A stretch of DNA of 63,368 nucleotides from Candidatus Thorarchaeota archaeon (lineage in GTDB: Archaea; Asgardarchaeota; Thorarchaeia; Thorarchaeales; Thorarchaeaceae). The notes beneath the pieces are model-generated. The model was given only the letters and a program-made list of their open reading frames with translations, was not told the origin of the DNA and made no database searches. The stretch lies in assembly GCA_048884785.1 (NCBI GenBank), contig JBHLQM010000007.1, positions 9,567-72,934 of the forward strand, given 5' to 3'. Of this stretch, positions 7,359 to 51,971 are shown one piece after another (positions within the stretch are counted from its first letter, which is position 1; the number at the start of each line of letters is the position of its first letter). Position numbers and translations under genes: made by a program.

Positions 7359-7635
7359 CGATTTGATCCTCTTCAAGGGTCATACTCCATGGCCCCAGAC
7401 CGGATACCCACCAAAAGAGAACAACCCCAATATCGATGACAATCACCCAGAGGGCTGCGGTCCAGAAGAACTGGAATATCAACTCATATTCTGTTGCCGG
7501 AGGTCGTCCCCATGCTAGAAGTGAGAAGAACATGCCAATTTCAACAAAGATGCCAATTAGTATTGCAATCTGAGTAAATAACAGCATTTTCTGCTCTGTG
7601 ACGAATGTCTTGAATCTTGTTGCAGCCTTCATCAC
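7336..7635 (-). CDS. Small membrane protein (2 TM)
   Basis: 99 aa ORF with two hydrophobic helices; overlaps the convergent gene by 23 nt. Confidence 0.6.
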   Translation of the reverse strand: MMKAATRFKTFVTEQKMLLFTQIAILIGIFVEIGMFFSLLAWGRPPATEYELIFQFFWTAALWVIVIDIGVVLFWWVSGLGPWSMTLEEDQIVSHGEEE

Positions 7636-7726
7636 AAATACCCGTAGAATGTCTAATCAAACCTCAATATAGTTCTTTGGTGACATCACCCATAACAACA
7701 ATGTTAAGGCTTTTCGAATACCAGAT

Positions 7727-8719
7727 GTGATGGTTCAATTGGTAGAATACGTAAGGATTTCACTCGGAACTGCACTTCTTCTAGGTTTACTAGATGGCAC
7801 TCCCCCTGGCAATTTTGCAACTGTTTTTCTCATGACCTACAACGAAGAAGGTTGTCGAGCCAATTGTGCATTTTGCCCTCAGGCATTGGAGAGCAGCTCA
7901 AGTCCTGAGATGCTATCAAGAATTGGATGGCCACAATATAGACTAAAAGATGTTGTAGATTCCATACCGGAAACCAAAGGAATTCAGCGAATCTGTATAC
8001 AATCTCTCAATTATCCAAATGCCATTCAAGATGTTAAAGATATCAGCAAGAGAGTTCGTTCCGTATCAGATGCGCCTATGTCAACCTGTATTCATCCTAT
8101 TTCTAAAAAGGAAATGAGTGGCCTAAAACGGGATGGAATAAACAATATTGGAATCGCAATTGATGCATGTACACCTGGTCTCTTTGATTCAGTCAAAGGG
8201 GTATTTAGAAATGGACCATATTCATGGGAAAGTCATTTCGCGGCAATCCGAAACGCTCAGCAGGTTTTTGGGAAATCCAATGTCACCACACATTTGATAA
8301 TTGGTTTGGGAGAGTCAGAGGAGGATGCAGCGAGATTTCTCTTTAGAATGAATGAAATGGGAGTCAAGGTAGGTCTCTTTGCATTCACAAGTATCAAAGG
8401 GACAGCATTTGAACAACGGCATCAGCCAGATCTAAAGAAATATAGACGTATACAGGCGCTTCGACATCTGATAAGTCAAGGAAGAATCACTGAGGAAGAC
8501 ATATCATTCGACCATATTGGAGTCATGAAATTCAAGTCGGATCCGAATTCTCTTAGAGAAAGCTTATCATCGGGCGGAGCATTTCGTGTGACTGGATGCC
8601 CTGGATGCAATCGTCCCTATTACAACGAACGCCCTAAAGGACCGATGTTCAACTATCCCAGACCCCTCACTGACGATGAACTTGCTGAGGCACTAAAAGA
8701 TACAGGCTTGGTGAATTGA
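7727..8719 (+). CDS. lipS2: Radical SAM protein, archaeal lipoyl synthase subunit LipS2-like
   Basis: CxxxCxxC motif (CRANCAFC) and C-terminal TGCPGCNRP matching the LipS2 TxGCPxC(N/D)RP-type motif; overlaps lplA. Confidence 0.8.
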   Translation: MMVQLVEYVRISLGTALLLGLLDGTPPGNFATVFLMTYNEEGCRANCAFCPQALESSSSPEMLSRIGWPQYRLKDVVDSIPETKGIQRICIQSLNYPNAIQDVKDISKRVRSVSDAPMSTCIHPISKKEMSGLKRDGINNIGIAIDACTPGLFDSVKGVFRNGPYSWESHFAAIRNAQQVFGKSNVTTHLIIGLGESEEDAARFLFRMNEMGVKVGLFAFTSIKGTAFEQRHQPDLKKYRRIQALRHLISQGRITEEDISFDHIGVMKFKSDPNSLRESLSSGGAFRVTGCPGCNRPYYNERPKGPMFNYPRPLTDDELAEALKDTGLVN

Positions 8720-9489
8720 AAATCGAAGAATTCAGGTTTCTTGACCTAGAAGTGAATAACGCCTTTCGAAATATGGCAATTGATGAAGCCATAATGCTCT
8801 CGGTTAAAGATGGTAAATCACTACCGACTCTAAGGTTTTACCGATGGAAACCTTCTGCTGTATCAGTGGGTACCTTTCAAAGTATGCTGGATGAAGTTGA
8901 TGTTGAGTTCTGTAAAAGAAACAACATTGATTGCATAAGACGTATCACCGGCGGCGGGGCAGTATACCATGATTTTAATGGGGAAATCACATACAGCATC
9001 ATTCTTCCGAAAGGTCACAGACTAGCACCTGATGATATCATAAAATCATACAAAATAATATGTCAAGGGATAATACGAGCACTAAGCAATCTTGGTATCC
9101 CCTCTGAGTTCAAGCCAATAAACGATGTTATCAGTGGCGGAAAAAAGGTATCAGGAAATGCACAAACAAGAAGGCACTCTTGCGTACTGCAACATGGGAC
9201 TACACTACTCAATCTTGATGTTGAGTTAATGTTCAGCATTCTAAAGGTCCCACAAGAGAAGATCTCAGACAAAATGATAGCAGATGTCAAGGACCGAGTA
9301 ACATCAGTATCTGATGTTCTTGAGAGAAGAGTGGCTATTGGAGAACTACGGAATGCTCTTCAATATGGCTTCTCAGAAGCACTGGCAATCAAACTAACCA
9401 AAGGCGAATTATCGACGGACGAGGAAAGAATGGCCAAAGAGCTTGAGAGTTCCAAGTATAGGAGTACTGACTGGAATTTCTCGAGGTGA
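8716..9489 (+). CDS. lplA: Lipoate-protein ligase A, catalytic domain
   Basis: NMAIDEA, RRITGGGAVYHD, KKVSGNAQ, HGT motifs. Confidence 0.92.
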   Translation: MKIEEFRFLDLEVNNAFRNMAIDEAIMLSVKDGKSLPTLRFYRWKPSAVSVGTFQSMLDEVDVEFCKRNNIDCIRRITGGGAVYHDFNGEITYSIILPKGHRLAPDDIIKSYKIICQGIIRALSNLGIPSEFKPINDVISGGKKVSGNAQTRRHSCVLQHGTTLLNLDVELMFSILKVPQEKISDKMIADVKDRVTSVSDVLERRVAIGELRNALQYGFSEALAIKLTKGELSTDEERMAKELESSKYRSTDWNFSR

Positions 9490-10026: not shown

Positions 10027-11508
10027 GTGAAGCCTCTTGGTACTATTACCAAGTACTATCCGTTCATAGAGGAAAAACTCCAGAGGACTCTGAATCGATT
10101 AATGGATGAATCTGAGTGTTATTTTGAATTTGCTCAAAAACTGGCGAAGTATGTAATGGAGAATGATGTTGATGTTCATCTTGCATATCTTGCAACGAGA
10201 CTAATTTGGTGGACGCAAGTTCCAGATCTGATAGAATCTATCGCACTGAAATATCATGATTATGAACCGATACAGGCTTGGAAGTACCCACTTAGAGGCG
10301 CAATCACTGATCAGGTTAACTACGAAATGGAGTTTCAAAAGACACTAATTAAAGCCATAGAGCAATGTACAGACGATTGGATACGAGTTGAACTTTACCT
10401 ATTAGATGCTGTCTTCAAGATTCCTTTTTCCGTTCCTGATGTTGTGAAGTCATTGGATGCGGCAAGCCTCCTAATTGAAGACAACGAGAGGCTCGAATGT
10501 TTTAGTTCTTGGTTTGATGTCATTGAGGGAGTAACCAAAAAAAGAGAAATGACCTTGGACGAAACATGGAATCTTTTAGAGAGAGGAAGAAAAGCTGCAA
10601 AAATGTACAATGATGATATTGTCAGATACGAAAGTCTCCTGTATCAAGCCTCGATTAGGCGCGATGTGGATATCCAATCATCTCTGGATCTATACGAGCA
10701 GGCATATAGTTTAGCAACTGCCTTGGAGATTCCATTCTTCATATCAGAGGTAATGAGTGATTGCTCTGTTTCCTATGAGTTATCAGGTGAATTCGATTTG
10801 GCCGTAGCGAGCGCTTCTGAAGCTGTGAATGAATCTCATGGGATTCATCCGAATACACCGCTACTAATTCTAGCCCGCATATATTCGCGACTAGGAATGG
10901 GCGAAAAAGCTCTTGAGAGCATTAACAGTATCGACGAAACTCTAGATGAAACTAGTATTCATGTCTATCACCTAAGAAAGGCTCGCGCACTTCTTTTACT
11001 AAACAGGCTTGACGACGCCGAACACCATCTAGAATTTGCCTATCCTTTGGTTCTAAGAACTGACTGGGAAATGCGCCTAAGCGAATACTACCATGTGACT
11101 GGTCTTCTGGAATATGCGAGAGGAGAACTACATAATTCGTTGAACATGCTTCAGAAATCACTCGAGATTCTTGAACGTCGAAACCACCCTCTTTCGAAAA
11201 TACCAATCCTTAGAGATCTAGCCAACGTCGAACTTTCAATAGGTCTAGAATCAAAGGACTCTGAAGGCGCAATTGTCCCTGGTCAATGGATGACCTGCCT
11301 TGAGAACTTGATAAACAACCACACTTTACCGGGACTCAAAATGGAATTCGCACTTCTTAAGTCCGACTTTTATCTCAATTCAGGACATATTCAAGATGCT
11401 CGTCAGATTCTTGTAGATGCATTGAATCTCTCTGACTCAGATGCGTTCAGGACCCTACGATTTGAATTGAAAAAGAGGTTACACGCTATAGATTTGCTAT
11501 GGATATAG
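10027..11508 (+). CDS. Tetratricopeptide-repeat (helical repeat) protein
   Basis: 493 aa, all-helical, repeated TPR-like units such as LARIYSRLGMGEKALE and TGLLEYARGELHNSL. Confidence 0.75.
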   Translation: MKPLGTITKYYPFIEEKLQRTLNRLMDESECYFEFAQKLAKYVMENDVDVHLAYLATRLIWWTQVPDLIESIALKYHDYEPIQAWKYPLRGAITDQVNYEMEFQKTLIKAIEQCTDDWIRVELYLLDAVFKIPFSVPDVVKSLDAASLLIEDNERLECFSSWFDVIEGVTKKREMTLDETWNLLERGRKAAKMYNDDIVRYESLLYQASIRRDVDIQSSLDLYEQAYSLATALEIPFFISEVMSDCSVSYELSGEFDLAVASASEAVNESHGIHPNTPLLILARIYSRLGMGEKALESINSIDETLDETSIHVYHLRKARALLLLNRLDDAEHHLEFAYPLVLRTDWEMRLSEYYHVTGLLEYARGELHNSLNMLQKSLEILERRNHPLSKIPILRDLANVELSIGLESKDSEGAIVPGQWMTCLENLINNHTLPGLKMEFALLKSDFYLNSGHIQDARQILVDALNLSDSDAFRTLRFELKKRLHAIDLLWI

Positions 11509-11650
11509 GAATCATGAGATTAAGTATTCTTACCATTGATCACTCTTCTGACAATCACAGATACCTCTAGCATCTAAGGTACCTTTTTATTCCGCGACAA
11601 CCGGTTGGATTTCGGGATCAAATCATTAGAACTTCTCCGGGTGTCTACCT

Positions 11651-13042
11651 ATGGAAAAAGATTCTGAAATGGGAAATGTGACTCTTTTTGTCGTACTTGC
11701 TGCAGTCGCGGTGATTATTCTCTTTGAAGTATCGACATATAGCTATCTTTTGTTCCATTCAGCAGTCGAGCTTTTCTCAATTATCATAGCAATGTCTGTT
11801 TTTGTCATTGGATTGAATGCGGATAGGTTCTCTCACAATGAAATTTTTAGAGCACTTGGAATAGGCTACTTGTTTGTTGGAATTTTGGATACACTCCATT
11901 TGCTTGCCTTTAAGGGAATGGGGGTGTTTCCTGGTTTTGATGCCAACCTTCCGACGCAATTGTGGTTAGCCGCAAGAATCCTAGAGTGTTCAAACTTTCT
12001 TCTGGCACCGCTCATATACAAACGAAGTTCTCCACGATGGGCTATTTTCTCAGGAAATCTAATTTACAGTATTACGTTGACAGGATTGATATTCTCAGGA
12101 TATTTTCCTGTTGCGTATATTGAAGGAGTGGGGCTTACCCTATTCAAAGTGGGAACGGAATATGTCCTTATTGTATTGTTATTGGTTGCAATGGTTGCTT
12201 TTACAAGATACGATTTGGGGCTTGAAAAAAGACTAGTACGCCTTATCACATATGCACTCATTTCAACTGCCCTTGCTGAGATTTCTTTCACTCTTTATGT
12301 CGATGTTTACGGGATTATGAACATGATTGGACATTATCTTAAGCTGATATCCTTCTACTTCATCTATAGGGCAATGGTTGTTGGTCCTCTCTTTACTCCA
12401 TATGAGGTTATGTTTAGAAAAATCAAAAGAGATGAAGAAGCGCTAAGAATTGCCAATAAAACAATGAGGCACGATATTATCAACGAACTAGCAATTATTC
12501 AGACCTCACTCGAACTCTATTCTGAAATGGGAGATGACTCAGTTCTGAAAGAAGCAAATGAAGCGACAAAGAGAGGTATCAACCTGATACAATCAATTAA
12601 AACCTTGGAGAATTCGGACAACCGGGCACTTGATGCGAATTTCCTAAGAATTCATGATATGCTTTTGACATCAGCCCAAGATTCCAAATTGAAGGTGTCC
12701 ATTGAAGGCTCAAGTGAATGTCTAGCTAGTGATGCAATGTCATCTGTATTTCACAATATCATCCAAAATGCTGAACAGCACAGTAATTCAGATAGAATAG
12801 AGATTTCTCTAAAGGACGAGAAGGGCTTCTGCATCATAAGCTTCAGAGATTTCGGCAATGGAATTCCTGAAGACTTACACGAAAAGATATTCGAAGAGGG
12901 ATTTACCTACGGAGAAAATGCAGGAACTGGTATGGGTCTCTTTCTTGCTAGAAGAATAGTAGATAGATATAATGGGACGATTAAGTGTCTTAGCGGGTTT
13001 CCAAACGGATCCGTCTTTGAAGTAAGATTGCCTGCTCCTTAG
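11651..13042 (+). CDS. Membrane sensor histidine kinase (MASE3 + HisKA + HATPase)
   Basis: MASE3-like YLLFHSAVELFSI / DTLHLLAFKGM; H-box MRHDIINEL; N-box NIIQNA; G1 DFGNGI; G2 GTGMGL. Confidence 0.9.
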   Translation: MEKDSEMGNVTLFVVLAAVAVIILFEVSTYSYLLFHSAVELFSIIIAMSVFVIGLNADRFSHNEIFRALGIGYLFVGILDTLHLLAFKGMGVFPGFDANLPTQLWLAARILECSNFLLAPLIYKRSSPRWAIFSGNLIYSITLTGLIFSGYFPVAYIEGVGLTLFKVGTEYVLIVLLLVAMVAFTRYDLGLEKRLVRLITYALISTALAEISFTLYVDVYGIMNMIGHYLKLISFYFIYRAMVVGPLFTPYEVMFRKIKRDEEALRIANKTMRHDIINELAIIQTSLELYSEMGDDSVLKEANEATKRGINLIQSIKTLENSDNRALDANFLRIHDMLLTSAQDSKLKVSIEGSSECLASDAMSSVFHNIIQNAEQHSNSDRIEISLKDEKGFCIISFRDFGNGIPEDLHEKIFEEGFTYGENAGTGMGLFLARRIVDRYNGTIKCLSGFPNGSVFEVRLPAP

Positions 13043-44540: not shown

Positions 44541-45251
44541 TTGCCTCAAGAAGACCAGGAGAAACCAGACGATCTAGATTTAGTGTTTAAAGCACTTGGA
44601 CACACCACACGAAGGAGGATACTCAGACTACTCGCTCAGAGGCCTAGGTATCCATATGAACTCAGCAAGCTGCTATCCTTTGAATTGAGCAAAAGTGTGA
44701 CTTCTCGGGTGGTCATTAAACATTTAGAAGTGCTGCAAAATGTGGGGATAGTTTCCAGAGAAACAGGAGAGAGTGATCTGGGTCCTGACAGGACATACTA
44801 TCGACTTAATATGGGATTTGGGCTTTCAACTACTCTCTTGCCCAATACCTTTGTTGTGCGTTTGACTCCACATGGTGGAACTATTAAACTTCCAGCCGGG
44901 TTTGTGATCCCATCGGTAAGTACAGATGTCAAAGCTGTTCGGTATCTTCTGAACGACCTTCAAAAGATCGATCGTCGACTTACTTCGTTGGATGATGAAA
45001 GAACAAGATTGGCTAATCTGAAGGGGCAGATAATCCAGAGGGTGGAGGACATAATGCAGGAGCACAACTGGGATGAGATAAGTTGCTATCGAGTAAGAAC
45101 CCTACTTAATCCAGTCCGCTCAGAAGCAGAGGGAGAGGAATCTGCCGAGCCTATGGATGAAGTAATGGATATTTTTGAGAAGCAAATGGGTAGTTCCAAG
45201 ACATCTAAGGAAAAGAAACCAAGACAAGAAATATCAATTGAATTCGATTGA
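44541..45251 (+). CDS. ArsR-type wHTH regulator with coiled coil, Phr/HSR1 (COG1777)-like
   Basis: LGHTTRRRILRLLAQRP..ELS...KHLEVLQNVGIV...GPDRTYY, beta hairpin, then coiled coil, as in the archaeal heat-shock regulator Phr. Confidence 0.8.
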   Translation: MPQEDQEKPDDLDLVFKALGHTTRRRILRLLAQRPRYPYELSKLLSFELSKSVTSRVVIKHLEVLQNVGIVSRETGESDLGPDRTYYRLNMGFGLSTTLLPNTFVVRLTPHGGTIKLPAGFVIPSVSTDVKAVRYLLNDLQKIDRRLTSLDDERTRLANLKGQIIQRVEDIMQEHNWDEISCYRVRTLLNPVRSEAEGEESAEPMDEVMDIFEKQMGSSKTSKEKKPRQEISIEFD

Positions 45252-45257
45252 GAAACT

Positions 45258-45959
45258 CTACCAATTGAGGTCAATTCCCCAATCTGTTCTATCTGGTCCT
45301 TGCATACTCGGGACATATTCAATCGGATTGTAGGGCATTTCTATACCAGTTGATTTCTTTATGGTAAGATAGTTCTTGCCTCGAGATGTTGAGAGTGTTA
45401 CTATTCCTTGAGCCAAAGAGAAGAGCTGATTGATTGTAACCGAGTCTGCTGTATCTGCATGGATAAGATAATACTCTATGGATCCATTTCTGATGCTCTC
45501 TTCTACGCTCTCTTTAAAGAATTGAACCACATCTCTAGCTGAGAAATCGATAAGAAGAGGAGTTAATGCTTCAAAAGCTATGACACGAGGTTGCAGGAGA
45601 TTCCTTAGACTTCTCATCATGATATTAATCTCATGAAGATGTGGAGAGCAAGTATGTCTTCCTACGGTTTGCTGTCCGTAATTGACCTCTAGTATTTGAA
45701 ACTCATCATTTTGCTTCTTTGCCATATCATCAATTAGAGTTCTATTCCTTGCTTCAGTTATCACATTAAGAGTTCTGAGTCCATGCTTGGCGGCTTTTTG
45801 AATAACAGTCGTCATGAAAAGGTCATAATGGCTTTCCTGTGAAGCCATTACCAGATACACATATCCCTTTGGTGGCTTAGTGAGTAAACTATCAATGATG
45901 TTTTGGTGGTTTTTGCTAATTTCTCTGTTTACGCCAGCCATTACAGCCTGACCTCTCAA
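45258..45959 (-). CDS. Degenerate RAD55/KaiC-fold protein (no Walker A)
   Basis: Walker B-like RVIAFEALTPL, FSLAQGIVTL and LTIKK are present; no P-loop. Confidence 0.6.
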   Translation of the reverse strand: MRGQAVMAGVNREISKNHQNIIDSLLTKPPKGYVYLVMASQESHYDLFMTTVIQKAAKHGLRTLNVITEARNRTLIDDMAKKQNDEFQILEVNYGQQTVGRHTCSPHLHEINIMMRSLRNLLQPRVIAFEALTPLLIDFSARDVVQFFKESVEESIRNGSIEYYLIHADTADSVTINQLFSLAQGIVTLSTSRGKNYLTIKKSTGIEMPYNPIEYVPSMQGPDRTDWGIDLNW

Positions 45960-46339
45960 TCCTCAATTCTCAGATGTTTTCTGATAGTTTCAACCAATGC
46001 CTTACCTGAAAAGGGCTTTACGAGATAGTCGTCGGCACCTGCTTCTTGCCCTTCTTTGATGTCACGGCTCAATCCTTTAGCGGTAAACATCAGGATTGGC
46101 ACTTTTTTGAACCTATCTTCCCCCTTTAGTCGTCTACATACCTCGAATCCATCCATTCTTGGAAGCATAACATCAAGAAGGATGAGATCGGGACTCTCTG
46201 AATGTGCGAGCTCTAATGCAGTTTCTCCATCGAATGCGCAAGCAACTTCGAAGCCATGACTTTCAAGGAATTTCTTTGCCAACTCAGTTGTTATCTGCTC
46301 GTCATCAACAACCAAGATTAGTGGCTTTTTTTCACTCAA
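45956..46339 (-). CDS. Stand-alone response regulator receiver (CheY-like)
   Basis: VVDDE, LLDVMLPRMDG, FTA, KPF; all canonical residues present. Confidence 0.95.
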   Translation of the reverse strand: MSEKKPLILVVDDEQITTELAKKFLESHGFEVACAFDGETALELAHSESPDLILLDVMLPRMDGFEVCRRLKGEDRFKKVPILMFTAKGLSRDIKEGQEAGADDYLVKPFSGKALVETIRKHLRIED

Positions 46340-46352
46340 GTATCATCAATCC

Positions 46353-47738
46353 TTATACAATGGGCATTAAATCGTAATCAAGGAATCCTTCTGAGAGAAT
46401 AGGGCGTAATGCAAGATAATTGGTTCTTGGATTCTCTCCGACAACTCCCAGCACGCCGCATATTTCTTGAACACTGAGATGTACATGGTGAGATATTGAT
46501 TCGCTCTTTATTCCTTGATGTCTGCTTAGGATCGTTATTGTTGTTCTATTTGTTCTCTGAAGTGATGAGGACATTTCTGCAATCATCCCACGAACTCCTG
46601 CCGGGCCATACATGTTCTCCAATGTATCCAAAGCAAAAAGCTCCGTCACCTCATGCTTGAACTTCCTTTCTAGTTCTCCTGCCTCATATCTAATTTCCTG
46701 GAGGGTTTTAAGAGGATCAGAATCTATGGTTCTAACATTTTCGTATTGACCCAAATAATGGCGACCAAAGAAAACTACCTGAGCTTCTACTCGTGGTTTA
46801 TCAACAAAATGTGCTAGATTCTCTATGAAGAATTCGGGAGACCAGCCCTCGGGAAGAAGAATAACTGCAGGACGTCCTAGCTCCAAATGATTTGAGAGGA
46901 AGGGTATATAGATAGTTTCAAGGTATGGAACACCCAGATTCTCAACCTCAATTAGACTGAGTTGTCCTTTTCTGAATCCTCCGCCCAACATTTTATCCAG
47001 ACTGTGATTGCCTGTTGACATTCTATCTGGCGAAGGGTCAGCAATTGGTTCGCGACTTACTGTGATTGCCGGGTATTGATGTAAATACCAAGGAATGTAT
47101 GTAAATCGTCCATCATAAAGGGTAAAGAGAAAAGTATCCTGACTTATGGGTTGAGATCTCATTTTCTGCAGAATTATCTGGCGGTGCATCCGCTGATTTT
47201 CCCGTATTTTTTCAAGAACTATAACGCCATCTGCTGAATGGTGGAGAGTGTTGCAGTCAAAACTCGAAGAGGTTTCCTCTGAAACAAGAATTAATTTCCG
47301 ATTTTCTCTTCTGGCAGCGTGAATAATTGACTGTTGAATCTCATATCTATTGTCAGATGGTATAGGTTGCACAAAATCCGTCCAAGAATCTACTATAACC
47401 AGCTCTGCCTCGCATCTAATTTTGGTTTCCCCCAGAAGGTTGCAAAGATGGTCCTCTAAGGATGATTGATGAGCAATTTCTAGGTTCAAAGGACGTCTAT
47501 AGGATGAAAGAATATGGCGCTTTGCCCAATCAGGAGTTGTAGTGCCTAATTCTTGGTCAATCGCATTGAAATTCTCAGTACTGGTCAAAATCATGAATGA
47601 ATTCTTGTAATGTCTGAAAATCTCCTGGACAAAGAGTGATTTGCCAGTTCCGGGTTTTCCTGTGACAACAAGTACAAATCCTGTATTTGATGACAGTGCA
47701 TCCTGTATACTCGGAGGTACTTCGCCTACTTCACTCAT
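46353..47738 (-). CDS. Two-domain KaiC/RAD55-type ATPase, GvpD-like
   Basis: Domain 1: GKPGTGKS, VIVDSW, ADGVIVL, KMR. Domain 2 starts STGNHSLDKMLGGG but lacks Walker A. Confidence 0.8.
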   Translation of the reverse strand: MSEVGEVPPSIQDALSSNTGFVLVVTGKPGTGKSLFVQEIFRHYKNSFMILTSTENFNAIDQELGTTTPDWAKRHILSSYRRPLNLEIAHQSSLEDHLCNLLGETKIRCEAELVIVDSWTDFVQPIPSDNRYEIQQSIIHAARRENRKLILVSEETSSSFDCNTLHHSADGVIVLEKIRENQRMHRQIILQKMRSQPISQDTFLFTLYDGRFTYIPWYLHQYPAITVSREPIADPSPDRMSTGNHSLDKMLGGGFRKGQLSLIEVENLGVPYLETIYIPFLSNHLELGRPAVILLPEGWSPEFFIENLAHFVDKPRVEAQVVFFGRHYLGQYENVRTIDSDPLKTLQEIRYEAGELERKFKHEVTELFALDTLENMYGPAGVRGMIAEMSSSLQRTNRTTITILSRHQGIKSESISHHVHLSVQEICGVLGVVGENPRTNYLALRPILSEGFLDYDLMPIV

Positions 47739-47834
47739 TGGACGATTCCCTTGCGCTTTTCAATCATATCAATAACTAACTTATATACATAAGTACGGAT
47801 CATCGAAGTGCGCCGGTCCAATCCAATTTCATTG

Positions 47835-49430
47835 CTATTTCGACAATCTTTCAATGAAATCAAGTAGATAGGGACATATACCACCGGTCTTCCATAGTAG
47901 ATTTCCATTGCATCCTTTTCGGGGTGCTTGAGTTTCTACACGACATTCAAACGTTTTTTCTCTGTCAAAAAGAATACAGAGCTCACTCTGCAAGTCAGGA
48001 TCCTCTATGAATTTAGCCCTCACTTTTCGCATTAGTGTAACATCATGGTGTTTTACCCAGTCAGAAACATCACCTAGTACTGATTTTGCCTCTTCAATCA
48101 GAGCCTTTTCCGGCTCCACCTCTTGTGCAAAGGACGTCATTATCTGACTAACTCTTGCTGTGAATGCAAGCAATGGATTGCCCGTCTGAACAGCCTTCTT
48201 TTCTGCAAGAATATAGAGCTTCATGGCATCCTTGAATTTTTCCTGCATATAGTTGGCGTCTGCAAGCAAGAAAGGCAAAAGGATCAGAAGATCCACCATG
48301 CCTGATGCTTCAGCTATTTCTGTGCTTTCCTTATAATTCGTAATTGCCTCCTCAAAATTACCCTTTCTAATCATTATATCTCCAAGGTTTATTTTGCAGG
48401 TGGCAATACCTCGCATGTACTCAGCTTCTTGGCTTATTTCTAGAGCTCGCTGATTGTATATCTCCATTTGGTCAAATTGATCAAGACTTCTATCAATCTC
48501 TCCCACATTGATAAGGGTTCGAGCAAGTCCAATTTGATTATTCAGCTGTTGTTGGGTAATCAGTAACTCCTCGAACTGATCTCTTGCATCTTGGTTCTGT
48601 CCACGATCCATGTGAAGAATACCGACCAGATTTCGAGCATCTGATACTCCTTGGAGATATCCCATCCGCTCATATTTTTGTAGGGCTGCCTTAACAAGAT
48701 TCATTGCACGGTCGTATTCGTGGGATTCTTCCAAAATTCTTGCTCTGTAGTACATTATATCTGTGAGCGCGAGTTCATGGTCCATAACTTTAGCAGTTTC
48801 TTCCGCAGAATCAAGTCTAACATAGGCTTCGTCACGCAAACCCATTTGAAGGTCAATGTGTGCCATCAGGATTCGGGCTCTCAGAAGAGAAGCTTGCACC
48901 TTATTTCGTATGAGTTCATCCTTTGTTGTAGCTAATGTGACCTTATCGATGCTTTCCAGAGCTATCGTTCTTGCTCGTTCTGTGTATCCCAAATCTATGA
49001 GGACTGATGCCAATTGAACAGAAAGCTCTGCAAATGCGATGTAGTCCTGTCCTTGCCAGGCTTGATTGACGTATGTCTGTAGATTGTTCAGCCACCGTGG
49101 ATCAAGGCTCTGTCTGCAATATGCTGCAGCAGCATATCCTTTGCCTACTATACTGGAACTGCTTTTCGCAATTATCTGATTATAGCCATAAAGTCCTCTG
49201 AGAAAAGCTGCTTTCGCACAGATTGCCAAAAATCCCTCACTTCTGTTTCTCCACTCTCCACTCCCAACATATTCAGTTAAGACATCTGTAAAATGCATGA
49301 AACGATCCTTTCCAGATCTGTATCCAGCGGCAAGTCTGCTACCTATATCGTCCTTCTCAGATTGTTCTAGCCGGTCTATATACATAGAAAACTCCGGTAT
49401 AATTGGTTTATCAAGCAATACTCTCGGCAC
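47835..49430 (-). CDS. TPR protein with Cys-rich C-terminal tail
   Basis: Multiple ~40-aa TPR units (ARTLINVGEI, ATCKINLGDI); four Cys in the last ~50 aa. Confidence 0.85.
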   Translation of the reverse strand: MPRVLLDKPIIPEFSMYIDRLEQSEKDDIGSRLAAGYRSGKDRFMHFTDVLTEYVGSGEWRNRSEGFLAICAKAAFLRGLYGYNQIIAKSSSSIVGKGYAAAAYCRQSLDPRWLNNLQTYVNQAWQGQDYIAFAELSVQLASVLIDLGYTERARTIALESIDKVTLATTKDELIRNKVQASLLRARILMAHIDLQMGLRDEAYVRLDSAEETAKVMDHELALTDIMYYRARILEESHEYDRAMNLVKAALQKYERMGYLQGVSDARNLVGILHMDRGQNQDARDQFEELLITQQQLNNQIGLARTLINVGEIDRSLDQFDQMEIYNQRALEISQEAEYMRGIATCKINLGDIMIRKGNFEEAITNYKESTEIAEASGMVDLLILLPFLLADANYMQEKFKDAMKLYILAEKKAVQTGNPLLAFTARVSQIMTSFAQEVEPEKALIEEAKSVLGDVSDWVKHHDVTLMRKVRAKFIEDPDLQSELCILFDREKTFECRVETQAPRKGCNGNLLWKTGGICPYLLDFIERLSK

Positions 49431-49576
49431 TCTCTCTCCAGAATAAATACTAATGCATTTCGATGACGCACCGCCTTTTTAAATCAAAAGGGTTCTAGTA
49501 TTTTTGTCCGCGCTTTTTATTATTGGTGGGTAAAGATTAAATCATAATAGCATAAAAAGGGCTGAGGAGAGGAATA

Positions 49577-50332
49577 ATGGCGAAGAATAGGGTAAGCAGT
49601 GGTGTTTCTGGGCTTGATAATTTGCTGAATGGAGGGTATATGCACGGACGGTCCATGTTGTTGGCAGGAGGGCCAGGAACTGGCAAGAGCATTTTGACAT
49701 GGCATTTCATTTTTGATGGGATAAGAAAAGGCGAGAGTGCTGTGTTGCTATCACTCGACCAAACCTCTGATGTCCTTATTGAGGACATGAAGGCATTTGG
49801 ATTTGAACCTGACAAAGCTATCAGTGACCAGAAATTTACAATCCTGAGTGGAACTCTGCGTCTTGTTCCTACTGAAGCAGGATACGACTATGTCATAGGA
49901 TTTGATCATCCACTCTTTCGAGAGAAACCGTTTACCATTCCACGCCTGGCAGACCTTGTGAAGAAGAGATCTGATGAAACAAAAGCTACTCGAATTGTCA
50001 TTGATGGATTAGGCCCCTTATTGGAGTTGGCAGGCAATCGATTCGAAGTGCGGCAGATGGTGTATAGCTTCATCAAAGAGCTTTCTAACCCAAATGCAAC
50101 AATCTTACTTACACATGAATTGAGATCTCTTACAGGAGCACAAAACGACGAAATGCCGTACTTCATTGCCGATGGTGTGATTAAGCTAGATATGATCTAT
50201 TCAACAGGAGATTATGTCAGAACACTCAGGATTGTCAAGTTAAGAGGAACTAGTCATACCATGCGACCTGTAATGTTTCGAATAGAGTCAGAAGGTGCAA
50301 AAGTCTATCCTGACGCAAGAATCCCTGAATAA
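49577..50332 (+). CDS. Single-domain KaiC/RAD55 family ATPase
   Basis: SGVSGLDNLLNGG, GGPGTGKS, IVIDG, IADGVIKL, KLRGTSH. Confidence 0.92.
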   Translation: MAKNRVSSGVSGLDNLLNGGYMHGRSMLLAGGPGTGKSILTWHFIFDGIRKGESAVLLSLDQTSDVLIEDMKAFGFEPDKAISDQKFTILSGTLRLVPTEAGYDYVIGFDHPLFREKPFTIPRLADLVKKRSDETKATRIVIDGLGPLLELAGNRFEVRQMVYSFIKELSNPNATILLTHELRSLTGAQNDEMPYFIADGVIKLDMIYSTGDYVRTLRIVKLRGTSHTMRPVMFRIESEGAKVYPDARIPE

Positions 50333-50336
50333 GAAT

Positions 50337-50726
50337 CTACAGTACTGGCTCAACCTTCCTCATCATATCCAAAAGGTCATACATTGAGAAAGGTTTCTGG
50401 ATGTAGGCACGGGCACCAGCAACCAATACCTGATTTCCGAAGTCTTCAACAATATCGGCAACTGCAATGATTGAAATCTTGGCATCTATATCCAAGATCT
50501 TCTCAATAATACGCATTCGCTCTCCTTCTGTCATCATGAAATCGAGCACAATGATACTTACTCTGTGTGAGCTACACATCGCAAGAAGTTCATCAGGGGT
50601 TTCAGGTTCACCGATTACATCATATCCGGCTTCCTCTACTGCCATTCTTACAAGTGACCTTAGCAAAGGAACATCGCCCGCAATTATGACTTTCAAGAGG
50701 TACACCTGTTCTTGAACATAAAGCAA
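50337..50726 (-). CDS. Atypical receiver-domain protein
   Basis: Receiver fold with LDFMM and KPF, but the acidic pair is GD and the conserved T/S is replaced by A. Confidence 0.8.
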   Translation of the reverse strand: MLYVQEQVYLLKVIIAGDVPLLRSLVRMAVEEAGYDVIGEPETPDELLAMCSSHRVSIIVLDFMMTEGERMRIIEKILDIDAKISIIAVADIVEDFGNQVLVAGARAYIQKPFSMYDLLDMMRKVEPVL

Positions 50727-50742
50727 AAATCAAAAGCGTGAA

Positions 50743-51105
50743 CTAGGTTGAAACTGCCGATTCAACCAGGTCCAACATATGACGAATCGTTACTGGTTTG
50801 AGACCAAAGCTCACAGCACCATTCTTCATAGCCTGTTCACGGACATTCGCATCAGCACTGATGAATACAATTCTGGCGTTTGGTTCTATTGACAGAATCT
50901 CTTTCATCGCCTCAAGACCATCCTTATTCGGCATGCGATGATCCAATATTAGAACATCAGGTTTGGTATCCATAGACATATACTTCTGAATGGCTTCTTC
51001 ACCATCAAAAGCATCCGCGACGACCTCGTGCCCTTTTATCGAAAACACATCTTTGTATAATCGATGTAGAATGGGTTCATCGTCAATTATGAATATAGAC
51101 ACCAT
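50743..51105 (-). CDS. Stand-alone response regulator receiver
   Basis: IIDDE, LDHRMPNKDG, ISA, KPV. Confidence 0.93.
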   Translation of the reverse strand: MVSIFIIDDEPILHRLYKDVFSIKGHEVVADAFDGEEAIQKYMSMDTKPDVLILDHRMPNKDGLEAMKEILSIEPNARIVFISADANVREQAMKNGAVSFGLKPVTIRHMLDLVESAVST

Positions 51106-51971
51106 ATATCATGCCTACCTTATGAGCTACTCAACGTCTTTTGATTTCTGCTGTTAACTCTGTATTGAGCATTCTCTACTCATACATTCAGTTAAACTTA
51201 GCTTGTTTCAAACGCAGTGTTTCTATTTAGTTGTATGGTATAAAAATGAATATGGGATTCATATTACATTTGGGTTCTCTGCACCGATTCCGGATTCATC
51301 GCATATTCCTATTGCTACTTCCTATTTATTCCAAGATATTTTTGGTATTCCAACCTTTCGATTTTTCGACAACCATTTTTTTGTGTAACATTAATTATTA
51401 TACTAATTATTTATACAATATGCCACTATTATGTAATATTAATTCCTATGCATCGGCAATGTGTTGCATATATAATTATAGATTACAATTTTAACAAATA
51501 TAGGTTATATAATAATCAAATTTCTTCCCAGGTGTCATCCATATTCATATAAACAGCGTATTCGATAATTGAGTATGATTAGTCAATTCAAAACATGATC
51601 CCTTTGTATTTCATACTCATTTAGTGTGTACTACTACCTTTTTCCGAGGATAATCAGGGTTATTTGCATCAAATATTTACCCGAAGATATTATAACACGA
51701 TTACTGGGTATGGGAATGTATTCTGTTTTCTTGTGGATGCGATCATCCAATTAAGGGATTGATTAACCCAATGAACATAAAATATATAGATAATATTAAT
51801 AATTAATGGGAATTATAATAAAATGCATTATATGGTACCAAATTGTACCACAAAATGCATATCTACTTAACTTAAACGGATATCGTAATAAATGACAAAA
51901 TGCAAAACTGAGGGATAGAAATAATTAATATGACGAATGTTTGCATAAACATATATTAAAAATAAATTGAT
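51106..51971. other. Long, very AT-rich non-coding region
   Basis: No credible ORF; hand counts give 10 G+C per 60 nt at 51361-51420 and at 51781-51840. Confidence 0.7.

Follow-up and report, generated by a model that had tools for sequence, protein, structure and literature searches.

A putative two-tier signalling locus in one Thorarchaeota family: a receiver-TPR core with an optional trio of KaiC-fold proteins

Introduction

KaiC-like ATPases are numerous in archaea, and Makarova, Galperin and Koonin reportedly proposed in 2017 (mBio 8:e01959-17) that such ATPases and their inactivated partners are hubs of archaeal signal transduction. Outside the archaellum and gas vesicles, almost none of them has a defined partner set. 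Pseudo-receiver domains, those of the KaiA N-domain and of CikA, dock on the Kai complex of the cyanobacterial clock, and in Bacillus the Rap phosphatases, which are tetratricopeptide repeat (TPR) proteins, act on the stand-alone receiver Spo0F. Here we describe a locus of Candidatus Thorarchaeota archaeon (assembly GCA_048884785.1, a 91% complete metagenome-assembled genome (MAG), labelled G000 below). The window analyzed is a 63,368-nt stretch of contig JBHLQM010000007.1, forward-strand positions 9,567-72,934. At 45258-51105 it carries seven open reading frames (ORFs), g1 to g7: three KaiC-fold proteins (g1, g3 and g5, hereafter the trio), three stand-alone receivers (g2, g6 and g7) and a TPR protein (g4). 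The evidence leans modestly towards a signalling locus of two tiers, limited to a single Thorarchaeota family, in which a receiver-TPR core is accompanied by an optional KaiC-fold trio.

The proposal of KaiC hubs with inactivated KaiC (iKaiC) partners is cited in PMC5847659 and PMC13700489. Receiver (REC) fusions of the types iKaiC-REC, REC-DUF835, MEDS-REC, REC-PAS-TPR and TPR-REC have been tabulated for other archaea (Galperin et al. 2018, PMC5847659, Table 2), which makes direct receiver-iKaiC and receiver-TPR contacts plausible. No description of the present cluster was found in the literature searched.

Results

The KaiC-fold trio is kept or lost as a set

Order and orientation of the seven genes are unchanged in all 11 other full-form loci examined, which come from eight further genera and show 35-89% identity. 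All of these loci belong to one Thorarchaeota family. Because collinearity holds in every one of them, the arrangement is not due to chance, and the co-location in related genomes that the original prediction implied is borne out within this family. Gene order breaks beyond g7, indicating that the block is more than background gene order. The other flank is usually syntenic and contains a Phr-type regulator gene, a 115-aa ORF and a DUF389 gene.

The seven genes are not equally distributed. The TPR gene g4 is present in 71 of the 86 family genomes and in 16 of 16 genera, and strong matches to g1, g3 and the g5 orthologue were found in ~34, ~33 and ~31 of the 86 genomes, respectively. Wherever contigs are contiguous, g5, g3 and g1 are either all present or all absent. 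No contiguous locus holds an intact subset of them, and the apparent exceptions (G338, G364, G002, G003 and G355) are contig ends. About 35-40 family genomes, whole genera included, keep g7-g6-g4, usually with g2, and have no trio gene. Trio-less loci with intact g7, g6 and g4 beside the Phr-like gene were seen in G009, G372, G016, G007, G348, G345 and G017, and g2 persists in the reduced loci of G012, G391, G349, G350, G357, G372, G009 and G017. In the first five of the latter, the gaps between the TPR gene and g2 and between g2 and the Phr-like gene are too short to hold g3 and g1. Since g2 is kept between the lost g3 and g1, three non-adjacent genes were deleted separately in each lineage.

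Several reduced loci still carry traces of the trio. Fragments of g5, g3 and g1 are present in G017, whose congener G392 has an intact cluster; G345 contains a g1 remnant, G362 a 63-residue g3 remnant, and G370 fragments of g1 and g5 with stops, g3 being absent. A 30-residue g1 match in G356 is a possible further remnant. In a tree of g4 and g7 from 19 loci, the full/reduced label changes five times, at least three of these changes being forced by well-supported branches, and the basal rows are full. This tree is midpoint-rooted, so the direction of change is read mainly from the remnants. We conclude that the trio was lost at least 3-5 times, leaving remnants behind.

That g5, g3 and g1 act as one unit is best supported by their correlated, all-or-none loss. 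Retention of the receivers and the TPR protein without the trio indicates that these proteins have a trio-independent function, so that the receivers cannot depend on an ATPase hetero-oligomer as their obligatory output. The original prediction, in which receiver phosphorylation feeds hetero-oligomers of active and inactive ATPases as the output, is not supported on this point.

Predicted activity states of the three KaiC-fold proteins

Domains were called with Pfam and NCBIfam, motifs were read on orthologue alignments, and folds were assessed with AlphaFold models and Foldseek. Pfam, NCBIfam and PDB sequence-profile searches returned no match for g1. The AlphaFold (AF2) model of g1 (pLDDT 84.7, pTM 0.85) aligns over its full length with KaiC, FlaH, PH0284 and PH0186 (Foldseek E ~1e-11, TM 0.63-0.73), FlaH (4yds) being the second-best structural match. 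The g1 profile also aligns with the N-domain of g3 (hhalign E 1e-4, 185 collinear columns), and its hhalign comparison with g5 was insignificant. As sequence searches gave nothing, g1 is placed by the hhalign match to g3 and by the fold search. Walker A is missing from g1, where MASQDSHYDLF occupies that site, and the mean column identity among 10 orthologues is 73%. Judged by its model, g1 is an inactivated KaiC-fold protein, or iKaiC, in agreement with its earlier description as a P-loop-less RAD55-like protein.

The two-domain protein g3 matches KaiC (52 bits; Pfam PF06745, cut-off 26.6 bits) and GvpD_P-loop (26.2 bits, cut-off 24) in its N-terminal half only, at residues 16-209. Walker A (G27, G30, G32, K33) and Walker B (D117) are invariant in this N-domain, and a single Glu, Glu55, is left of the catalytic Glu pair. 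The C-domain keeps the KaiC entry motif STGxxSLDxLLGGGF and contains no GxxxxGK[ST]; it is better conserved than the N-domain. Absence of Walker A from g1 and from the g3 C-domain identifies both as inactivated (iKaiC) forms. The predicted two-domain ATPase with an inactive-looking second half is thus what we find. Its proposed likeness to GvpD holds in so far as g3 passes the GvpD_P-loop threshold and has the same architecture, but the match is marginal, lies below the KaiC score and is not accompanied by an NCBIfam GvpD match.

With 156 bits for g5 and 52 bits for the g3 N-domain, two of the three proteins belong to the KaiC superfamily by sequence; g1 belongs to it by model fold. Walker A (GGPGTGKS) and Walker B (D143) are invariant in g5, and the combination of GxxxxGK[ST] with a Walker B Asp that characterizes active KaiC proteins is present in both g5 and the g3 N-domain. 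Neither has the catalytic Glu pair, since g3 has one Glu and g5 has Asp61-Gln62. In g5 the motif SLDQ is invariant, the Asp is the same in 8 orthologues, and LDQ aligns with FEE of KaiC CI and YEE of CII (KaiC E77/E78). These residues suggest that g5 likely binds nucleotide and that its catalysis may be weak or altered. The earlier assignment of g5 as a single-domain KaiC-like ATPase agrees with its intact P-loop, with the correction that the catalytic Glu pair of KaiC is replaced.

In G004 the full cluster is intact except that codon 104 of the g5 orthologue (L013:12194-12949) is an in-frame TAG, which reflects either incipient decay or an assembly error. In G358 two cluster copies were seen, on contigs C150 and C166, one intact and the other with g5 broken by TGA stops, which may reflect a strain mixture (7% contamination) or a real duplication. 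Elsewhere in G000, contig C42 carries two adjacent canonical KaiC-like genes (7528-9236), one of which includes an in-frame TGA that was read through. Immediately upstream of this pair, a 111-aa ORF gives a sub-threshold KaiB match (22.1 bits, cut-off 27), the sole KaiB match in the genome; there is none in the cluster.

Receivers and the TPR protein

Two of the receivers are canonical. The motifs DDE / D / T / K of g2 are invariant in 10 orthologues, and its best NCBIfam matches are OmpR-class receivers, RpaB among them. The motifs DDE / D / S / K of g7 are likewise invariant across orthologues, and g7 is the best-conserved gene of the locus, its copies in the examined family loci being 62-89% identical to that of the window. 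Both proteins match PF00072 and have the acceptor Asp, the acidic pair, the Thr/Ser and the Lys. Of these residues, g6 keeps the acceptor Asp and the Lys without variation. Its metal-binding pair has lost the first acidic member and reads G-D, G-E, G-I or G-S, and the Thr/Ser is Ala in G000. Hence the three stand-alone receivers of the original prediction are present, in that g2, g6 and g7 all match Response_reg, but the metal pocket of g6 is degenerate. The true start of g6 is probably a later GTG or TTG.

The gene predicted to encode a TPR scaffold, g4, does encode a TPR protein (TPR_12, 77.7 bits). In its AF2 model (pLDDT 89.4), an unbroken all-alpha solenoid extends to about residue 475 and is followed by a small C-terminal module of lower model confidence that contains C485, C496, C507 and C519, with a spacing of 10-10-11. 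The four Cys residues and an N-terminal PIIPEF are invariant in 11 orthologues, and the N-terminal part contains invariant Gln/Asn residues. Fold searches with g4 returned generic TPR solenoids (LGN, APC5), with Rap phosphatases from rank 26 on, and no relative of the Cys4 tail was found in the ESM Atlas. The sequence encoding PIIPEF (49385-49430) lies upstream of the first ATG of g4, where a public gene call begins. Because PIIPEF is invariant, the true start is a non-ATG codon, probably GTG at 49430 or a non-ATG codon nearby.

Sensor kinases are encoded elsewhere in the genome

No HATPase_c or HisKA domain was found in the 42-55 kb stretch of the window, and no kinase gene that would complete a local two-component system lies beside the receivers. 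The nearest kinase in the window is a MASE3 histidine kinase at 11651-13042, ~32 kb off. Across G000 there are 17 HATPase_c matches, of which 3 are TopoVI-B-like, 1 is MutL-like (by N-terminal sequence) and 13 are sensor histidine kinases. At least 13 kinases carry PAS, GAF, FIST or MASE3 domains; none is a hybrid, and none has a receiver of its own. Of only five receiver domains encoded in the genome, three belong to this cluster. The others are on C120, beside a helicase-like gene and a PAS-HisKA kinase, and on C4, where a receiver stands alone. The cluster was predicted to be kinase-free, which is true of the seven genes, but at least 13 sensor histidine kinases are encoded elsewhere in the genome.

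The same imbalance was seen in five relatives with the full cluster, for which receiver matches and HATPase_c matches number 3 and 17 (G021), 4 and 16 (G018), 5 and 12 (G010), 5 and 10 (G019) and 4 and 10 (G344). The imbalance is not general, and other genomes of the same genus contain 8-20 receiver domains. The input to the locus is likely to be phosphotransfer from orphan kinases, many of them acting onto few receivers.

Directly upstream of the MASE3 histidine kinase, and on the same (+) strand (10027-13042 for the two genes), the window encodes a 493-aa MalT-like TPR protein. This protein (10027-11508) was considered as a g4 paralogue and rejected, since it has no similarity to g4. Three HATPase_c paralogues of G000 (C30:13135-14667, C86:8523-9716 and C60:11230-12759) share a TopoVI-B-like N-terminus, SPAEFFYRNR.

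Layout and neighbours of the locus

All seven ORFs were confirmed (Table 1), and the predicted run of seven contiguous signalling genes stands, its domain types needing small corrections only. Pfam and NCBIfam scans agreed with the prediction that the seven genes include no histidine kinase, DNA-binding domain, KaiB or gas-vesicle gene. The genes fall into three transcription units, two of them on the minus strand (g7-g6 and g4-g3-g2-g1) and the third consisting of g5, which runs the opposite way. The receiver gene g2 is flanked by g3 and g1 at gaps of 13-15 nt. The overlap of g1 with g2 that had been reported is a product of a TTG start at 45959. This start is unlikely judging from the alignment, in which orthologues begin near the ATG at 45941 and L021 has a stop in frame upstream of that ATG; the ATG fits the orthologues. 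A scan for bacterial promoters and terminators gave results no better than shuffled sequences, such a scan not being applicable to archaea. A known anti-phage defence system was also considered and rejected: PADLOC gave no assignment, only weak domain-level matches of 17-30 bits.

Table 1 Features of the locus and its immediate surroundings (positions in the window)
Feature	Position	Strand	Description
ArsR/Phr-type regulator gene	44541..45251	+	abuts g1
g1	45258..45941	-	iKaiC, KaiC fold without P-loop; 227 aa from ATG; optional unit
g2	45956..46339	-	canonical stand-alone receiver (DDE / D / T / K); Response_reg 109 bits
g3	46353..47738	-	461 aa, two-domain KaiC-fold protein: active-looking N-domain and P-loop-less C-domain; optional unit
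g4	47835..49430	-	531 aa, all-alpha TPR solenoid with Cys4 C-terminal module; core
g4-g5 divergent spacer	49431..49576	.	146 bp; A/T-rich TATA-like boxes and GGAGAGG ribosome-binding site before g5, as read from sequence
g5	49577..50332	+	251 aa, single-domain KaiC-like ATPase; KaiC 156 bits; optional unit
g6	50337..50726	-	divergent stand-alone receiver; Response_reg 54 bits; core
g7	50743..51105	-	canonical stand-alone receiver (DDE / D / S / K); Response_reg 75.6 bits; core
Conserved non-coding element	51611..51664	-	~54 nt, candidate operator/promoter of core operon

The regulator gene next to g1 encodes a member of the Phr heat-shock-regulator family (PDB 2p4w, E 1.5e-21, residues 10-171). 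Phr-like genes are present in 58 of 85 family genomes, trio-less ones included, and abut g1 in most loci; in G010 the Phr-like gene and the cluster are on different contigs. We considered this regulator as the output of the cluster and rejected it, because it is commoner than the trio, persists without the trio and is on a separate contig in G010. With the Phr-like gene treated as independent, the cluster is still without an evident DNA-binding output. The Phr-like protein of G000 has a 6-residue insertion, SFELSK, in the winged-helix region, which repeats the preceding YELSK and is absent from the other eight orthologues.

The AT-rich spacer upstream of g7 (51106-51971, ~860 bp) contains a conserved element with a GGTTAWCC palindrome and an inverted repeat, GTACAC-N6-TGAGTAT (51613-51631). 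It lies ~500 nt upstream of g7 here and 430-700 nt upstream in 11 loci, both full and reduced. The element occurs once in the genome and does not recur as a regulon motif. As a candidate structured RNA it had no Rfam or tRNA match and gave no covariation because its pairs are invariant, so that an RNA is neither supported nor excluded. In appearance it resembles an operator or promoter more than a structured RNA.

KaiC-fold sets in other Asgard archaea

The g1 family comprises 95 clusters in public data, all from Thorarchaeota and without a Pfam domain; all are annotated as hypothetical save one, which carries an automatic FlaH label. Within the phylum, strong g1 matches are confined to the one family described above. 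A sister family of the same order has a single divergent copy (E 2e-39), and a few other Asgard families contain weak relatives. The sister-family relative scores 26.0 bits against the Pfam KaiC threshold of 26.6 bits and touches DUF835. The cluster had been predicted to be an Asgard module; by this distribution it is not a general one.

In three loci from two other Asgard families (L029, L030 and L031), the g1-like protein is likewise without Walker A. It adjoins a canonical KaiC-like ATPase with LEE intact in L029 and L030, and a g3-like two-domain protein in L030 and L031. In L029:2295-7200 and L030:3514-12841 the remaining partners, in place of receivers and a TPR protein, are Arf/Ras/RagA-like small GTPases and TackOD1-wHTH-AsnC regulators. 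The pairing of KaiC-fold types in these families suggests that the association is older than the Thorarchaeota cluster and is wired to different partners elsewhere.

Discussion

We favour, by a limited degree, a locus of two tiers. The core would comprise the receivers g7 and g6, the latter having a weakened metal pocket, the TPR-Cys4 protein g4 and, in most cases, g2. The optional tier would consist of g5, presumed to bind nucleotide and with its Glu pair replaced, g3 with one active and one dead domain, and g1 as a dead domain. Strict co-retention and co-loss of these three point to a single assembly, and, being gained or lost only as a set, they would most likely form one hetero-oligomeric ring or stack of the RecA type. 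Orphan sensor histidine kinases encoded elsewhere would phosphorylate g7 and g2, and the phosphorylated receivers would act by binding the TPR solenoid and also, in genomes that have it, the KaiC-fold assembly. The position of g2 between g3 and g1 would make it the likely link to that assembly. The trio would modulate the receiver-TPR pathway, for example by ATP-dependent gating or timing, and would not be its sole output. We infer the mechanistic details of this scheme, that is, the trio as one ring, the role of g4 and the source of receiver phosphorylation. In a bolder version g5, binding nucleotide and perhaps hydrolysing it slowly, would join the half-active g3 and the dead g1 in one hetero-oligomeric ring that serves as an ATP-driven timer or integrator on a phosphorelay from many kinases to few receivers, the receivers docking as pseudo-receivers do on the Kai complex. 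We consider this version decidedly improbable. If true, clock-type output control would have an Asgard counterpart whose parts are encoded by separate genes and which can be detached from the receiver-TPR core.

Several points weigh against the two-tier scheme. The synteny comes from one family in which flanking genes are conserved too, so co-location alone is weak evidence. The genes form three transcription units, not a single operon. The concentration of most receivers in the cluster is not general, given the 8-20 receiver domains found elsewhere in the genus. Persistence of the core without the trio in whole genera means that any coupling between the tiers is dispensable. Finally, many family genomes are incomplete MAGs, and part of the absences are contig breaks.

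In the obligate, kinase-free module of the original prediction, receiver phosphorylation would feed active/inactive ATPase hetero-hexamers as the output. The interleaving of three receivers with three KaiC-fold genes, the position of g2 between g3 and g1 with gaps of 13-15 nt, and the REC-iKaiC fusions known elsewhere (PMC5847659) are what one would expect of such a module, but the ~35-40 family genomes that keep g7-g6-g4, mostly with g2, and no ATPase-fold gene make it unlikely. Alternatively, the core might work in the manner of Rap and Spo0F, with g4 binding the receivers and controlling their phosphorylation as a phosphatase or sequestering partner, the Cys4 module sensing metal or redox state, and the trio acting as an accessory modulator. 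A TPR protein with stand-alone receivers is the part kept in 71 of 86 genomes, the Rap structures 4i9c, 4gyo and 8rsv match g4 (TMt 0.61-0.63), and g4 has four invariant Cys as well as invariant Gln/Asn residues in its N-terminal part. However, the Rap matches rank 26 or lower, behind LGN and APC5, with an rmsd of 8-9 A; g4 has neither sequence similarity to Rap nor an assignable catalytic residue, and its Cys4 tail is without a recognizable relative. We regard this explanation as unlikely.

A transcriptional output would follow if g3, perhaps with g5 and g1, lowered the level of a regulator such as the Phr-type repressor, as a GvpD-like proteostasis switch. The GvpD_P-loop score of g3 (26.2 versus 24), its pairing of an active with an inactive domain and the Phr-family gene (2p4w, E 1.5e-21) that abuts g1 in most loci are consistent with such a switch. 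It becomes very unlikely once it is considered that Phr-like genes occur in 58 of 85 genomes, including trio-less ones, and on another contig in G010, and that g3 scores higher with KaiC, lacks an NCBIfam GvpD match and has no gvp genes nearby. That the genes are unrelated and stay together only because gene order is conserved within the family is hardly credible. The Phr-like gene, the 115-aa ORF and the DUF389 gene are syntenic as well, and the evidence comes from a single family. Yet gene order by itself does not account for the correlated all-or-none loss of three non-adjacent genes with g2 kept between two of them, for the signalling types of all seven genes and the same-domain fusions elsewhere (PMC5847659), or for the recurrence of the iKaiC-KaiC pairing in other Asgard families.

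Under the two-tier scheme, the locus offers what archaeal KaiC-like ATPases have largely lacked, a defined partner set, here with three KaiC-fold proteins in different activity states. These are small soluble proteins, suited to asking how active and inactivated KaiC subunits cooperate. The locus also bears on signalling by stand-alone receivers without DNA-binding outputs in archaea. In several genomes the core holds most or all receiver domains, with sensor kinases in three- to five-fold excess, and the locus could also help to explain the convergence of many sensors on few receivers in Asgard archaea. As a new kind of system it carries less weight, because its parts and the general idea are already known and the cluster is limited to one family.

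Among the known systems, ArlH/FlaH of the archaellum shares the single-domain KaiC fold, and FlaH (4yds) is the second-best match of g1; however, the ArlH score of g5, 57.6 bits, falls short of the cut-off of 215, g1 is without a P-loop, and the cluster contains no archaellum genes. GvpD of the haloarchaeal gas-vesicle clusters resembles g3 in combining a P-loop domain, here above the GvpD_P-loop threshold, with an inactive RecA-like second domain. It differs in that g3 has no gvp genes nearby and no NCBIfam GvpD match and is matched better by the KaiC model than by the GvpD model. A genome-wide GvpA search gave no match in G000, nor in the control genomes, and so carries no weight here. With Rap-Spo0F the core shares the pairing of a large TPR solenoid with stand-alone receivers, and Rap structures are among the fold matches. 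The match of g4 is generic, though, and g4 is longer, has a Cys4 tail and no sequence relation to Rap, and no peptide-signal gene was seen. The Kai clock with SasA/CikA-RpaA likewise couples a KaiC-fold ATPase to two-component parts, and the partly degenerate receiver g6 recalls the pseudo-receivers of the KaiA N-domain and CikA. Here, in contrast, there is no double-active KaiC, as the g3 C-domain has no P-loop, g5 is without Glu-Glu, and the cluster contains no kinase or DNA-binding regulator and no KaiA, for which no search aimed at it was made. A bona fide circadian KaiC system was rejected because g3 has no second active P-loop domain and the cluster no KaiB.

The closest likeness is to the proposed archaeal KaiC/iKaiC hubs, in which active KaiC-like proteins stand beside inactivated partners, are linked to receiver and TPR domains, and have an output presumed to be protein-protein. 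The original prediction had placed the locus in this class, as a KaiC/iKaiC-plus-receiver signalling cluster, and a conserved cluster without an internal kinase or DNA-binding output agrees with that placement. Where the hubs elsewhere involve fusions, the present components are separate genes in a fixed seven-gene order, within one family and with a detachable all-or-none trio. The cluster fits the proposed hubs, and what sets it apart is its fixed layout, its family restriction and its repeatedly lost trio.

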